Assembly: GCA_964016885.1 (NCBI GenBank)
Contig: OZ024748.1
Location: 57,846,001 to 57,910,000, forward strand
From: Eledone cirrhosa
Taxonomy: Eukaryota
Reading direction: 5' to 3'
DNA length: 64,000 bases
Shown: positions 8,261 through 50,372 of the stretch, piece by piece
Layout: each line of letters opens with the position of its first letter
Numbering within the stretch: position 1 is the stretch's first letter
Program-made: the position numbers and the translations under genes
Notes under the pieces: generated by a model
Databases searched by the model: none
What the model saw: only the letters and a program-made list of their open reading frames with translations
Told to the model about the DNA's origin: nothing

Positions 8261-11200
8261 ATATGTGAATATAGACATAGAATATTCGAAAATATTCTGT
8301 ATGTTTATAATAAACATTTTGAAGACCTAATCGGTATAGAATAGAATACGTCACGTATTACAATTAGATTCTCGATAAAAGCAAGGGAAGTAATCTACGC
8401 GTTTCATTCTTGTTAGAAATCATCAGGACTACATATCCAGTGCTTTTATCGAGAATGACACAGCTAGAGACTTATAGAATACTTAGCTGTGTACAGGAAC
8501 TGGTTTGAAAGAGCGGTTGCCGGTCCGGCAGAAATTAGAAATTGGAATAAATGCTCTGAAATAGCGATATATATGTGAATATAGACATAGAATATTCGAA
8601 AATATTCTGTATGTTTATAATAAACATTTTGAAGACCTAATCGCTATAGAATAGAATACGTCACGTATTACAATTAGATTCTCGATAAAAGCAAGGGAAG
8701 TAATCTACGCGTTTCATTCTTGTTAGAAATCATCAGGACTACATATCCAGTGCTTTTATCGAGAATGACACAGCTAGAGACTTATAGAATACTTAGCTGT
8801 GTACAGGAACTGGTTTGAAAGAGCGGTTGCCGGTCCGGCAGAAATTAGAAATTGGAATAAATGCTCTGAAATAGCGATATATATGTGAATATAGACATAG
8901 AATATTCGAAAATATTCTGTATGTTTATAATAAACATTTTGAAGACCTAATCGCTATAGAATAGAATACGTCACGTATTACAATTAGATTCTCGATAAAA
9001 GCAAGGGAAGTAATCTACGCGTTTCATTCTTGTTAGAAATCATCAGGACTACATATCCAGTGCTTTTATCGAGAATGACACAGCTAGAGACTTATAGAAT
9101 ACTTAGCTGTGTACAGGAACTGGTTTGAAAGAGCGGTTGCCGGTCCGGCAGAAATTAGAAATTGGAATAAATGCTCTGAAATAGCGATATATATGTGAAT
9201 ATAGACATAGAATATTCGAAAATATTCTGTATGTTTATAATAAACATTTTGAAGACCTAATCGCTATAGAATAGAATACGTCACGTATTACAATTAGATT
9301 CTCGATAAAAGCAAGGGAAGTAATCTACGCGTTTCATTCTTGTTAGAAATCATCAGGACTACATATCCAGTGCTTTTATCGAGAATGACACAGCTAGAGA
9401 CTTATAGAATACTTAGCTGTGTACAGGAACTGGTTTGAAAGAGCGGTTGCCGGTCCGGCAGAAATTAGAAATTGGAATAAATGCTCTGAAATAGCGATAT
9501 ATATGTGAATATAGACATAGAATATTCGAAAATATTCTGTATGTTTATAATAAACATTTTGAAGACCTAATCGCTATAGAATAGAATACGTCACGTATTA
9601 CAATTAGATTCTCGATAAAAGCAAGGGAAGTAATCTACGCGTTTCATTCTTGTTAGAAATCATCAGGACTACATATCCAGTGCTTTTATCGAGAATGACA
9701 CAGCTAGAGACTTATAGAATACTTAGCTGTGTACAGGAACTGGTTTGAAAGAGCGGTTGCCGGTCCGGCAGAAATTAGAAATTGGAATAAATGCTCTGAA
9801 ATAGCGATGTATATGTGAATATAGACATAGAATATTCGAAAATATTCTGTATGTTTATAATAAACATTTTGAAGACCTAATCGCTATAGAATAGAATACG
9901 TCACGTATTACAATTAGATTCTCGATAAAAGCAAGGGAAGTAATCTACGCGTTTCATTCTTGTTAGAAATCATCAGGACTACATATCCAGTGCTTTTATC
10001 GAGAATGACACAGCTAGAGACTTATAGAATACTTAGCTGTGTACAGGAACTGGTTTGAAAGAGCGGTTGCCGGTCCGGCAGAAATTAGAAATTGGAATAA
10101 ATGCTCTGAAATAGCGATATATATGTGAATATAGACATAGAATATTCGAAAATATTCTGTATGTTTATAATAAACATTTTGAAGACCTAATCGCTATAGA
10201 ATAGAATACGTCACGTATTACAATTAGATTCTCGATAAAAGCAAGGGAAGTAATCTACGCGTTTAATTCTTGTTAGAAATCATCAGGACTACATATCCAG
10301 TGCTTTTATCGAGAATGACACAGCTAGAGACTTATAGAATACTTAGCTGTGTACAGGAACTGGTTTGAAAGAGCGGTTGCCGGTCCGGCAGAAATTAGAA
10401 ATTGGAATAAATGCTCTGAAATAGCGATATATATGTGAATATAGACATAGAATATTCGAAAATATTCTGTATGTTTATAATAAACATTTTGAAGACCTAA
10501 TCGCTATAGAATAGAATACGTCACGTATTACAATTAGATTCTCGATAAAAGCAAGGGAAGTAATCTACGCGTTTCATTCTTGTTAGAAATCATCAGGACT
10601 ACATATCCAGTGCTTTTATCGAGAATGACACAGCTAGAGACTTATAGAATACTTAGCTGTGTACAGGAACTGGTTTGAAAGAGCGGTTGCCGGTCCGGCA
10701 GAAATTAGAAATTGGAATAAATGCTCTGAAATAGCGAAATATATGTGAATATAGACATAGAATATTCGAAAATATTCTGTATGTTTATAATAAACATTTT
10801 GAAGACCTAATCGCTATAGAATAGAATACGTCACGTATTACAATTAGATTCTCGATAAAAGCAAGGGAAGTAATCTACGCGTTTCATTCTTGTTAGAAAT
10901 CATCAGGACTACATATCCAGTGCTTTTATCGAGAATGACACAGCTAGAGACTTATAGAATACTTAGCTGTGTACAGGAACTGGTTTGAAAGAGCGGTTGC
11001 CGGTCCGGCAGAAATTAGAAATTGGAATAAATGCTCTGAAATAGCGATATATATGTGAATATAGACATAGAATATTCGAAAATATTCTGTATGTTTATAA
11101 TAAACATTTTGAAGACCTAATCGCTATAGAATAGAATACGTCACGTATTACAATTAGATTCTCGATAAAAGCAAGGGAAGTAATCTACGCGTTTCATTCT

Positions 11201-12250
11201 TGTTAGAAATCATCAGGACTACATATCCAGTGCTTTTATCGAGAATGACACAGCTAGAGACTTATAGAATACTTAGCTGTGTACAGGAACTGGTTTGAAA
11301 GAGCGGTTGCCGGTCCGGCAGAAATTAGAAATTGGAATAAATGCTCTGAAATAGCGATATATATGTGAATATAGACATAGAATATTCGAAAATATTCTGT
11401 ATGTTTATAATAAACATTTTGAAGACCTAATCGCTATAGAATAGAATACGTCACGTATTACAATTAGATTCTCGATAAAAGCAAGGGAAGTAATCTACGC
11501 GTTTCATTCTTGTTAGAAATCATCAGGACTACATATCCAGTGCTTTTATCGAGAATGACACAGCTAGAGACTTATAGAATACTTAGCTGTGTACAGGAAC
11601 TGGTTTGAAAGAGCGGTTGCCGGTCCGGCAGAAATTAGAAATTGGAATAAATGCTCTGAAATAGCGATATATATGTGAATATAGACATAGAATATTCGAA
11701 AATATTCTGTATGTTTATAATAAACATTTTGAAGACCTAATCGCTATAGAATAGAATACGTCACGTATTACAATTAGATTCTCGATAAAAGCAAGGGAAG
11801 TAATCTACGCGTTTCATTCTTGTTAGAAATCATCAGGACTACATATCCAGTGCTTTTATCGAGAATGACACAGCTAGAGACTTATAGAATACTTAGCTGT
11901 GTACAGGAACTGGTTTGAAAGAGCGGTTGCCGGTCCGGCAGAAATTAGAAATTGGAATAAATGCTCTGAAATAGCGATATATATGTGAATATAGACATAG
12001 AATATTCGAAAATATTCTGTATGTTTATAATAAACATTTTGAAGACCTAATCGCTATAGAATAGAATACGTCACGTATTACAATTAGATTCTCGATAAAA
12101 GCAAGGGAAGTAATCTACGCGTTTCATTCTTGTTAGAAATCATCAGGACTACATATCCAGTGCTTTTATCGAGAATGACACAGCTAGAGACTTATAGAAT
12201 ACTTAGCTGTGTACAGGAACTGGTTTGAAAGAGCGGTTGCCGGTCCGGCA
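8261..12250 (-). mobile_element. Left arm of a 310-bp HHR tandem array (retrozyme-like), ~12.9 copies, ribozyme sense on the minus strand
   Basis: ATATGTGAATATAGACATAG starts at 8261, 8571, 8881, 9191, 9501, 9811, 10121, 10431, 10741, 11051, 11361, 11671 and 11981 (period 310). I saw only isolated substitutions (8334, 9809, 10265, 10738). There is one HHR per unit. Confidence 0.92.
8368..8456 (-). ncRNA. Type I minimal hammerhead ribozyme (unit 1; repeated every 310 bp, 13 copies on the minus strand)
   Basis: Minus strand reads GUAGUC-CUGAUGA-U UUCU AACA AGAA U-GAAAC-GC-GUA^-GAUUAC. Helix I is GUAGUC/GAUUAC and helix II is UUCU/AGAA. Helix III is the palindrome ACGCGU. Helix I is extended by a perfect 16-bp inverted repeat, ATTCTCGATAAAAGCA (8368-8383) / TGCTTTTATCGAGAAT (8441-8456). 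Confidence 0.88.
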
Positions 12251-48461: not shown

Positions 48462-50257
48462 ATATATGGTAAAAGTGATTGTCACAAGGATTGGTCAAAA
48501 GTTTGTTGTTGAGACACATAATTCTATCATGGCATTTTGTGGAAGGAAGGGGTAGCTGAACTTGCCAGTAGAAGAAAGAGGGAGAGGGAGTGGAGGAAAC
48601 CCAGTCGTGCGTTGATAGTGCCAACTACAGCAGGATCCTAAGGATAAGAGGTCAAGAGAAGTATACTAGGGAGGAGGAGGGGAGGAAGTCGAAACAATAA
48701 GTAAATCAATATGGAGTAAATATATAGAAGAATAATAAGAATGTTAAAATATTTAAAATAAAACAATTTCTGGTTACTATTCCCCTACCACAATTATCAA
48801 GTCTCTCACTGGTACTGCCAAACTATAGAAACATTTAATAGGTGGGACGGAATACTAAATACGAGATTGTAGTGAAAGAATGTTATGAGTTAGTAGTAAT
48901 CGTCCAAATCTATCTTACAGTGACAGGTCAACAAGTAGTGGGCCAAAATACTAAAGAAACTACTACGAAATAATAATTCAGAGTCCCGAAACTAATACGA
49001 AATAATAATTCAGAATCCCGAAAATGAATACTAATACGATATATAAGAGTACCGCTACAATACATAAATTCTAATACAAACTACATAAATGCTCGCACGA
49101 TATATATGAAAAATTAAACATCGAAATATTAAATCAGAATCCCCCCCCCCCAATAAATATTGATATACGAGAAACTAAAGCAGAGATACCACTAAGAAAT
49201 ATAGAAAACACGGAAATGGGGCAGCAATCAGATAAGAAAGCAAGTATCTGGGGTCTATCACATCAGCTATAAAAAGCGGAGTCAGCCAATTCTATCATAG
49301 AATAGGGGATAGGGTGGGGGTACTGAGGCTACAAAGGACCGAAGGGCTGGCTCGGGGTGGGCGAGAAACTGAAAAGGACGACGACAAAGAAGGAGAACTG
49401 GGGTGGAAGGACTAGGAAGGGATGGGGGAGAAGAAGGAAATTTAGAGGAAACGATAACAAATATATAAGAAAATCTTACGTCTACCTTTGCAAGCAGGGG
49501 TTACCCATTACAAAGTCGGCAAGTGGGGTGTTACAGCCCTTGTCTACCCACCTCCCCCGGGTCATTATGGATTTGAGGGCGAGGTAAGTCCTACGCAATC
49601 TGTGTTTAATTTTTCATATATATCGTACGAGCATTTATGTAGTTTGTATTAGAATTTATGTATTGTAGCGGTACTCTTATATATCGTATTAGTATTCATT
49701 TTCGGGATTCTGAATTATTATTTCGTATTAGTTTCAGGTCTATGAATTATTATTTCGTAGTAGTTTCTTTAGTATTTTGGCCCCCTACTTGTTGACCTGT
49801 CACTGTAAGATAGATTTGGACGATTACTACTAACTCATAACATTCTTTCACTACAATCTCGTATTTAGTATTCCGTCCCACCTATTAAATGTTTCTATAG
49901 TTTGGCAGTACCAGTGAGAGACTTGATAATTTTGGTAGGGGAATAGTAACCAGAAATTGTTTTATTTTTTATATTTTTAACATTCTTATTATTCTTCTAT
50001 ATATTTACTTCATATTGATTTACTTATTGTTTCGACTTCCTCCTCCTCCCTAGTATACTTCTCTTGACCTCTTATCCTTAGGATCCTGCTGTAGTTGGCA
50101 CTATCAACGCACGACTGGGTTTCCTCCACTCTCTCTCCCTCTTTCTTCTACTGGCAGGTTCAGCTACCCCTTCCTTCCACAAAATGCCATGATAGAATTA
50201 TGTGTCTCAACAACACACTTTTGACCAATCATTGTGACAATCACTTTTACCATATAT

Positions 50258-50372
50258 GGAATTACCCCCTGAGAAGCTCGGGTATTTATGTATCAAGATA
50301 AAAATGTTTAATTTAGTCCATAATTAGCCGTCGAAACGGCTTGAGCTCAGCCGTCGGGGTTCTACTCGTTCC
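50258..50372 (+). ncRNA. Variant-core type I hammerhead motif (right arm)
   Basis: GGAA tt ACCCC-CTGAGAA-long helix II-GAA-ACGGCT tgagctc AGCCGT-C^-GGGGT tctactcg TTCC. Helix I is ACCCC/GGGGU plus GGAA/UUCC, helix III is 6 bp and the GUC triplet is at 50353-50355. The core is CUGAGAA instead of CUGANGA. Confidence 0.65.

Follow-up and report, generated by a model that had tools for sequence, protein, structure and literature searches.

The window analysed here is a stretch of 64,000 nucleotides from Eledone cirrhosa (contig OZ024748.1, positions 57,846,001 to 57,910,000; G000:C8:57846001-57910000 in our numbering), whose AT-rich genome measures 3.0 Gb in 1,796 contigs. It holds six inserts in TA-rich DNA, named E1 to E6 in the order of an initial annotation (Table 1). 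That annotation had read all six as non-autonomous ribozyme RNAs, tipped by hammerhead ribozymes (HHRs) and copied by the reverse transcriptase (RT) of a Penelope-like element (PLE) from the two ends of a broken (TA)n tract. Here we describe the arms and ends of these inserts and of their families, and weigh how they may have been inserted.

Table 1. Coordinates of the inserts, related stubs and E1-flanking tracts in the window (site A, short end; site B, long end; UTR, untranslated region)
Feature	Position	Strand	Remarks
Degenerate (TA)n tract, left flank of E1	3387..8264		target; sequence
E1 left arm, non-coding 310-bp unit with type I HHR, 12.9 copies	8257..12250	-	first HHR 8432-8390
E1 left arm, outer end		-	short site A, phase 139 after predicted cut; arm mapping
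E1 right arm, 3.9 copies	12250..13452	+	first HHR 12321-12363; long site B (phase 165) at the outer end
Degenerate (TA)n tract, right flank of E1	13451..15104		target; sequence
E2 left arm, ~1 copy of a 423-bp HHR unit	~16875..17313	-	HHR 17135-17092; site A, phase 219
E2 right arm	17342..17517	+	HHR 17428-17470; ends in unique DNA, at phase 53
E3 left arm, one unit of the ~550-bp family plus 31 nt	22609..23175	-	HHR 22742-22663; outer end at site A
E3 right arm, no HHR	23187..23313	+	ends at site B in (TA)n
E6-family stub, absent from the initial annotation	28819..28935	A arm (-), B arm (+)	arms disjoint on the RNA
E4 left arm, degenerate HHR and tail to the family's long end	32861..32953	-	core 32953-32947
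E4 right arm, type I HHR with variant core CCGATGA	32957..33003	+	short end, then (TC)n, TA
E5 left arm, last part of the 3' UTR in a Hydra-type PLE family, no HHR	39233..39535	-	long end
E5 right arm, no HHR	39540..39754	+	short end
E6-family stub	44955..45039	A arm (-), truncated + arm	arm mapping
E6 left arm, whole 3' UTR and last PLE codons, no HHR	48269..49608	-	long end B
E6 right arm, 770 bp, 96% identical to left arm	49603..50372	+	short end A

All six inserts are present as proposed, each with two head-to-head arms of unequal length and an end at a TA-type repeat. Outside such tracts, 5.7% of positions lie within 15 nt of a (TA)n run with n of at least 4. Inserts of this kind are abundant: 600 kb of unselected DNA, sampled as six 100-kb blocks, contains 89 closely spaced inverted repeats, of which 51 have an arm end at TA, and they would be mislabelled as miniature inverted-repeat transposable elements (MITEs) or satellites. 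The long TA tracts at 3387-8264, 13451-15104 and 23361-28818 (4.9, 1.7 and 5.5 kb) adjoin E1, E3 and a stub; the two that flank E1 have a common higher-order motif, and that at 23361-28818 is strongly G-skewed.

Outward-reading HHRs were found in E1 to E4, those of E4 being variant or degenerate; E5 and E6 have none under strict or relaxed descriptors, and this part of the annotation therefore holds for four of the six inserts. Nor are the inserts tipped by their ribozymes, as the cut site of E1 lies 130-165 nt inside the outer ends. The orientation itself is non-random. Among the 29 HHRs of many families in the unselected sample, 13 lie in inverted-repeat arms, at seven loci, and all 13 face outward; the other 16 lie in no detected arm. 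Both orientations occur in eight of the ten E1 arrays in the first 100 matches and in 13 clusters of the E3 family, invariably minus followed by plus. The sense direction is also set, independently of the HHR, by open reading frames (ORFs), whose 3' ends point outward.

Our wider HHR descriptor gave four matches in the window (long TA tracts removed, one E1 unit kept), whereas 200 dinucleotide shuffles of it averaged 0.04, with a maximum of one and none that reached four; HHR-like matches are thus almost lacking from shuffled DNA. Neither random orientation nor equal frequency in shuffles, two findings that the annotation had named as refuting it, was therefore observed. A narrower descriptor, with a loop II of at most 30 nt, let the E3 motif escape. 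Rfam scans returned no hammerhead, even across the complete motifs of E2, and Rfam negatives therefore carry no weight here.

Retrozyme-type repeats and Hydra-clade ends

By their unit structure, E1, E2 and E3 are tandem non-coding repeats of the non-LTR retrozyme kind, with periods of 310, ~423 and ~552 bp, a type I HHR in each unit and no long terminal repeat (LTR), primer-binding site or ORF. No PLE ORF match was found within the window except at the end of E6. The E1 HHR is a complete type I motif in both arms, with 4,587 matches in the genome, and the two arms overlap by 1 nt at the centre. In the predicted fold of its monomer, a long helix prolongs stem I (z=-3.9 for the circular form). 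In E3 the complete type I motif, with a stem II region of 49 nt, is confined to the left arm, and its family of ~552-bp units has 929 matches.

The left boundary of E2 had been misplaced at 16968. We put it, approximately, at 16875 inside TA, since the TA-like stretch ~16875-16968 is part of the 423-bp monomer. The right arm of E2 ends in unique DNA without the site B of its family and was likely shortened after insertion.

E4 is a decayed HHR stub, and intact HHR motifs are present in other copies of its family (6,090 pattern matches), which we reached through neighbouring loci, the exact E4 pattern having matched the window copy alone. The family is made up mostly of short palindromic stubs, not of tandem HHR units like those of retrozymes; the stubs begin just upstream of the HHR core, below a TATA-like motif. 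A seventh TA-adjacent repeat lies nearby at 33085-33320, with an HHR core on the minus strand (33271-33204) and 28 matches in the 600 kb.

E5 and E6 are instead HHR-less ends of autonomous Hydra-clade PLEs, which removes them from the non-autonomous class proposed for all six. By the motifs of its parent protein, E6 is the 3' end of such an element. Longer copies of its family (L103) carry an RT and GIY-YIG frame inside the same arms, and E6 is ~73-86% identical to the young parent subfamily. A protein search, with 150 of 22,244 candidates scored, recovered many intact 784-aa frames, some of them in 3.53-kb tandems. Motifs YRDD, WFNPP and NVIYQC..AYIGLT mark an RT with a GIY-YIG endonuclease at the C-terminus in a single ORF, accompanied by DKT, RWR (in place of RWK), CxCX5C, CxxC and CxH; no CCHH was seen. 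The Hydra clade, which includes Hydra-1_Obim, is defined by DKT, RW[K/R], CxCX5C and CxxC/CxH in the part of the account accessible to us (Craig et al. 2021, PMC8557442). Pfam gave no match for a 710-aa copy. E5 can be assigned on similar grounds: its end is joined to a Hydra-type ORF at three loci (L163, L170 and L176), in the order endonuclease end, ~1-kb UTR, E5 end, and it is thus classed as the 3' end of a second autonomous Hydra-type PLE family.

The 3.53-kb parent unit of E6 contains no CTGANGA on either strand, and no HHR match in it appears when one core mismatch is allowed. As read from its motifs, this HHR-less parent runs counter to the universality of HHRs in Hydra stated in the accessible part of the published account (PMC8557442). 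The Hydra-clade PLE seen at G000:C1:437199001-437202729 (L257) lacks a canonical HHR, is represented by many 784-aa frames of identical sequence and is apparently active. The E6 end motif has 23,406 exact matches in the genome. Besides the two E6-family stubs of Table 1, the window holds a TA-flanked stub at 28994-29073, with an E6-type long end on the minus strand and a diverged short arm, a variant that recurs in the 600 kb.

Several minor observations concern the E1 unit. One circularised 340-nt contig of it, at a depth of 10-15, occurs in public runs X1, X3 and X6. These runs are labelled as three other organisms, and carry-over is the simplest reading. X1 lacks coverage of a unique intergenic stretch, which X2, X4 and X5 (one sample) cover as long contigs; the latter therefore behave as DNA runs. 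Several E1 variants that recur in fixed form, at positions 20, 276 and 295, are A>G on the RNA strand, which may reflect RNA editing or G-U tolerance. An A-to-G editing signature was set aside as too weak, with six A>G against three T>C among 23 listed variants.

End pairing, centre joints and the template

All six families show the architecture of endonuclease-bearing (EN+) PLEs, namely 5'-truncated inverted or tandem copies, a one-ended tail and a (TA)n target. Each family has two fixed outer ends, the short A and the long B, and two-armed insertions carry one of each. The ends lie at phases 125-139 and 165-167 after the predicted cut in E1 and at 214-219 and ~275 in E2; A and B are ~120 nt apart in E3, ~76 in E5 and 81 in E6. 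Short AT matches to the target coincide with these sites.

The pairing of one A with one B recurs in every family in which it was counted. It is found at all nine two-armed E1 loci among the window copy and ten arrays from the first 100 matches. When E1 loci were picked by their B end, for which there are 1,228 junctions genome-wide, the A end lay opposite in 28 of 30; of the other two, one extends past the limit of the fetched DNA and the second has a single arm. The same holds for the ten clearly two-armed loci among 19 of E3 and for six of six, among 29 loci, of E5. Mapping of E6-family arms was confined to pairs within a 400-nt terminal reference, longer arms being excluded; its 50 adjacent arm pairs comprise 33 A+B, no A+A, no B+B and 17 unassigned. 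The rule extends to insertions that carry a PLE frame in each arm: all three that were fetched (L314-L319) are head to head with one A and one B, two of them with two full 784-aa frames and the third with the frame of one arm broken.

A bulged hairpin follows the end site in E3 A, E3 B, E4 A, E6 A and E6 B, that is, in five of ten family sites against 1.1% of the background; in the left arm of E6 it lies at 48340-48317, just past site A.

The inner parts of the E1 arrays bear on how the arms were made and joined (the arms at L096, L099 and L122 were separated by eye from neighbouring fragments). Of 36 loci, 19 have a longer A arm and 17 a longer B arm. Inserted bases are present at 12 of the 36 joints; in the remaining 24, the arms overlap by at least 2 nt in 19 cases, against 18.5% by chance (p=2e-10). 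The 72 inner (5') ends are uniform in phase, and one lies within 10 nt of the cut site where 4.9 would be expected. E1 5' ends are thus blind to the HHR cut site, from which it follows that HHR-cut linear RNA was not the template; judging from these ends, the template was likely a circle or an uncut multimer. Consistently, one haplotype runs through every unit in 22 of the 23 E1 arrays that have whole units in both arms. There are ~12 E1 haplotypes, and the chance of a match, worked by hand, is ~0.16 per array.

In the E6 family, by comparison, the inner ends cluster between -128 and -145 from B (52 of 66), with only one beyond, and a TATA-like motif at -167 and an Inr-like TTAGTC at -138 occur near them. 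This spacing suggests that E6-family stubs may end by run-off at a transcription start.

Proposed two-ended priming and competing explanations

We consider it likely that these observations have a common basis: Hydra-clade PLEs (E5, E6) and non-coding hammerhead repeats and stubs (E1-E4) are inserted head to head in (TA)n, so that a short end is paired with a long one, by a PLE-type enzyme that cuts both strands and primes reverse transcription from both 3' ends. Insertion would begin with the nicking of both strands of AT-rich DNA, as seen in vitro for a lizard PLE and in keeping with a 15-bp target duplication at one E1 locus. Site A of the RNA would then be used by one strand, and site B, which lies 26-120 nt further downstream, by its partner; a few AT bases match the target there, and in Hydra-type families the bulged hairpin comes after the site. 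Each cDNA would be extended towards the 5' end of the RNA. On linear PLE transcripts both cDNAs would often stop at the predicted TATA/Inr start and leave stubs of ~200 bp, and on the likely circle or uncut multimer of E1 they would run on to yield up to ~21 identical units. Finally, the cDNA ends would be joined, probably by microhomology-mediated repair, in keeping with the enrichment of microhomology at the joints. The HHR sets neither end, and its only role is likely the production of monomer or circular RNA. A Hydra-type enzyme is the likely mover of E3 and E4.

In L1 twin priming, both target strands prime on the RNA and microhomology joins the two cDNAs, so that one arm is inverted. There the first primer uses the poly(A) tail, priming of the second strand has no constant position and the arms are not known to overlap, whereas the insertions described here have two fixed sites and, as a rule, overlapping arms.

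More tentatively, and with doubts that outweigh our confidence, we suggest that one RT/endonuclease dimer might grip one RNA at two fixed signals and prime both nicked strands on it, one at each signal. Both enzymes of the dimer would roll around a single ribozyme-made circle to give long mirrored arrays and, on their own mRNA, run off the capped 5' end to give tens of thousands of 200-bp palindromic stubs. If true, this would be a general two-ended insertion mechanism explaining both the inverted copies and the one-sided tails of PLEs, and the arrays would be direct genomic evidence of circular retrozyme RNA pasted in by rolling-circle target-primed reverse transcription.

Several observations weigh against two-ended priming or against parts of it. 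Of the ten sites tested, the bulged hairpin is absent at E1 A and B, E2 A and B and E5 A, and a search of the fetched loci for autonomous partners of E1 to E4 gave none, no PLE there having the same HHR or end as E1, E2 or E4. Target duplications are legible at only one or two of 12 tested loci: one of 15 bp at an E1 locus in non-TA DNA (L044) and possibly a 32-bp repeat inside a microsatellite (L042), the other ten being unreadable in TA. The case for run-off in the E6-family stubs is the spacing of two motifs. At L113, a variant that fills one whole arm is confined, in the opposite arm, to the unit nearest the centre, which may reflect central conversion, two templates or a template altered while it was copied; common haplotypes could also stem from a single-donor burst or from later homogenisation. 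An E4-type arm is apparently joined to an arm of another PLE family at L304 and L305, and 272 foreign bases lie at the centre of L047. These are possible two-RNA events, and one RNA per insertion is therefore not universal. The lizard PLE Poseidon-Ac showed no strand preference of the start site and no target homology in vitro, according to the accessible text (PMC11167929).

The alternative that fares best, though we regard it as unlikely, concerns the arrays: a short PLE-type insertion might have been made first and the E1 and E2 arrays lengthened later by unequal crossover or slippage, with no need of a circular or multimeric template. A satellite route of this sort is discussed in the accessible part of a recent preprint (bioRxiv 10.64898/2026.07.22.740005), and a few E1 variants do recur in non-adjacent units. 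Yet the units are identical across both arms bar singletons, there are almost no blocks of adjacent units that carry a new variant, and the outer ends and centre joint are intact and of the insertion type. Later growth would in any case account for the length of the arrays and not for the pairing of A with B.

We give slightly less credence to priming on one strand followed by fold-back or self-priming, in which the second arm is copied from the first or from an antisense template and nuclease trimming leaves the tail. Both steps are in the published record as far as it was accessible, self-priming on an antisense template in one account (PMC3846280) and origin of the tail by nuclease resolution in another (PMC8557442). 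Fold-back would account for one haplotype per insertion, and it predicts the nested, near-symmetric arms seen in 33 of 50 E6-family pairs, many of them near-perfect palindromes, which counts against two-ended priming. It also requires that one arm be contained in the other. Among the 33 A+B pairs of the E6 family, however, the arms are disjoint in three, the window stub at 28819-28935 and two more. Nine of the 33 pairs, all non-tandem copies, have an A arm that exceeds the B arm by at least 10 nt on the 5' side, and at L108 the A arm measures ~1300 against ~240 nt. Neither disjoint arms nor longer A arms can be derived from their partners without extra one-sided deletions. The E1 centres, moreover, are asymmetric microhomology joints and not hairpin tips. 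Fold-back is therefore disfavoured relative to priming from both ends, with the reservation that later one-sided deletions could mimic disjoint or longer A arms.

An origin from DNA-transposon-derived foldback elements or MITEs that target TA is very improbable. The E6-family stubs invite it, being palindromic, ~200 bp long, situated in TA and very abundant (23,406 pattern matches). Their outer ends, however, differ by a fixed tail and their inner ends vary, so that the copies are not terminal inverted repeat (TIR) elements of fixed length, and RT and GIY-YIG frames lie between the same ends, with no transposase seen; the annotation had named fixed-length TIR copies with a DDE transposase as the finding that would speak against it. 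Identity of E5 and E6 as MITEs or DNA foldback elements was accordingly rejected on their unequal ends and on the RT and GIY-YIG motifs encoded by their parents. Hardly credible, finally, is an assembly artefact from fold-back of long reads, since, difficult as palindromes next to very long TA tracts are to assemble, it fails to explain the A/B asymmetry, the microhomology, the target duplication and the aged copies with arms 72-96% identical, and public-run contigs show the A-end/TA junction, although the run may be the source sample.

Relation to known elements

The annotation is supported in assigning PLE machinery, priming from both ends of a break and a retrozyme nature for E1-E3, although its single ribozyme class gives way to two kinds of element. 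Its suggestion that the system was undescribed does not stand, as the head-to-head, TA-targeted layout is already published for PLEs in the accessible parts of two accounts (PMC8557442, PMC3846280). The elements are of known kinds; the value lies in the end rule and the evidence on the template. Young copies give a quantitative footprint, in which an A end is paired with a B end, the joints show microhomology, an array has a single haplotype and the 5' ends disregard the ribozyme cut.

EN+ PLEs are described with inverted 5'-truncated copies, partial tandems, a one-sided tail of 30-40 bp and (TA)n targets in the text available to us (PMC8557442). E5 and E6 resemble the Hydra-clade members with a C-terminal endonuclease in motifs, (TA)n targets, inverted truncated copies and the one-sided tail. 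They differ from the accessible account (PMC8557442) in tails of ~76-81 nt, a unit above 3 kb and the want of a canonical HHR in the E6 parent, and neither the strict one-A-one-B rule nor stubs ending at start sites were found in it. In the accessible literature on the Penelope elements of Adineta vaga and Drosophila virilis (PMC3846280, PMC2377424), head-to-head inverted pseudo-LTRs (pLTRs) have a tail on one of them, with target duplications of 8-10 bp and trans-mobilisation of foreign sequence by pLTRs. That layout was explained there by antisense self-priming (Arkhipova et al. 2013, PMC3846280), and the D. virilis promoter is TATA-less and internal. Pairs of opposite-strand HHRs 100-700 bp apart have been reported in Schistosoma (PMC4209133, in part).

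For Poseidon-Ac (PAc), cleavage and extension of both strands and two adjacent internal start sites were seen in vitro in the portion of the study accessible to us (Frangieh et al. 2024, PMC11167929). It shares with the present insertions an AT-rich target, start sites that define the tail and independence from HHR cleavage, uncut RNA being used. Its start sites lie inside the ORF, whereas the sites at which reverse transcription would start on the E6 parent are upstream of the first ATG, ~90 and ~170 nt from it. That study reported neither a rule of one site per strand nor homology of primer and template, and it did not model inverted insertions.

For metazoan non-LTR retrozymes, PLEs have been proposed as movers and circular RNA as template (Cervera & de la Pena 2020, PMC7229834; Li, Clavereau & Pollet 2026, bioRxiv 10.64898/2026.07.22.740005), entry into animal genomes being proposed and not shown in the text available from either source. 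E1-E3 match them in that their non-coding tandem units, 310-550 bp long and poor in GC, each have one type I HHR with a palindromic stem III. With its long stem II, the unit of E3 lies above the range of 150-450 bp given there, and the arrays described here, known from their sequence, bear the full footprint of PLE insertion; the accessible text of the two sources makes no mention of inverted arrays, microsatellite targets or fixed ends. An octopus repeat annotation likewise contains no mention of hammerheads, retrozymes or Hydra in its accessible part (PMC13282606).

Accounts of PLEs, as far as accessible, call the origin of inverted copies and one-sided tails open (PMC8557442, PMC11167929). 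In a literature search that did not extend to subscription journals or bioRxiv supplements, we found no published description of a one-A-one-B rule or of two-ended priming for PLEs. Microhomology-rich centres, non-overlapping arms, cut-blind E1 5' ends with one haplotype and TATA/Inr stubs were not found in print either. The genome holds an intact, apparently active Hydra-clade enzyme together with E3 as a candidate passenger with the same hairpin signal, so that the mechanism is testable with the existing in vitro assay.

Two further kinds of repeat were noted in the window. Short inverted repeats at 61561-61753 and 63508-63558 have neither an HHR core nor TA ends and are nearly unique in the 600 kb. 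A dispersed repeat of ~190 bp, similar to short interspersed elements (SINEs), occupies 47380-47586 and about ten other places, among them 22250-22461, 55075-55269 and 19764-20141, the last consisting of three tandem partial copies, and has 143 matches in the 600 kb.

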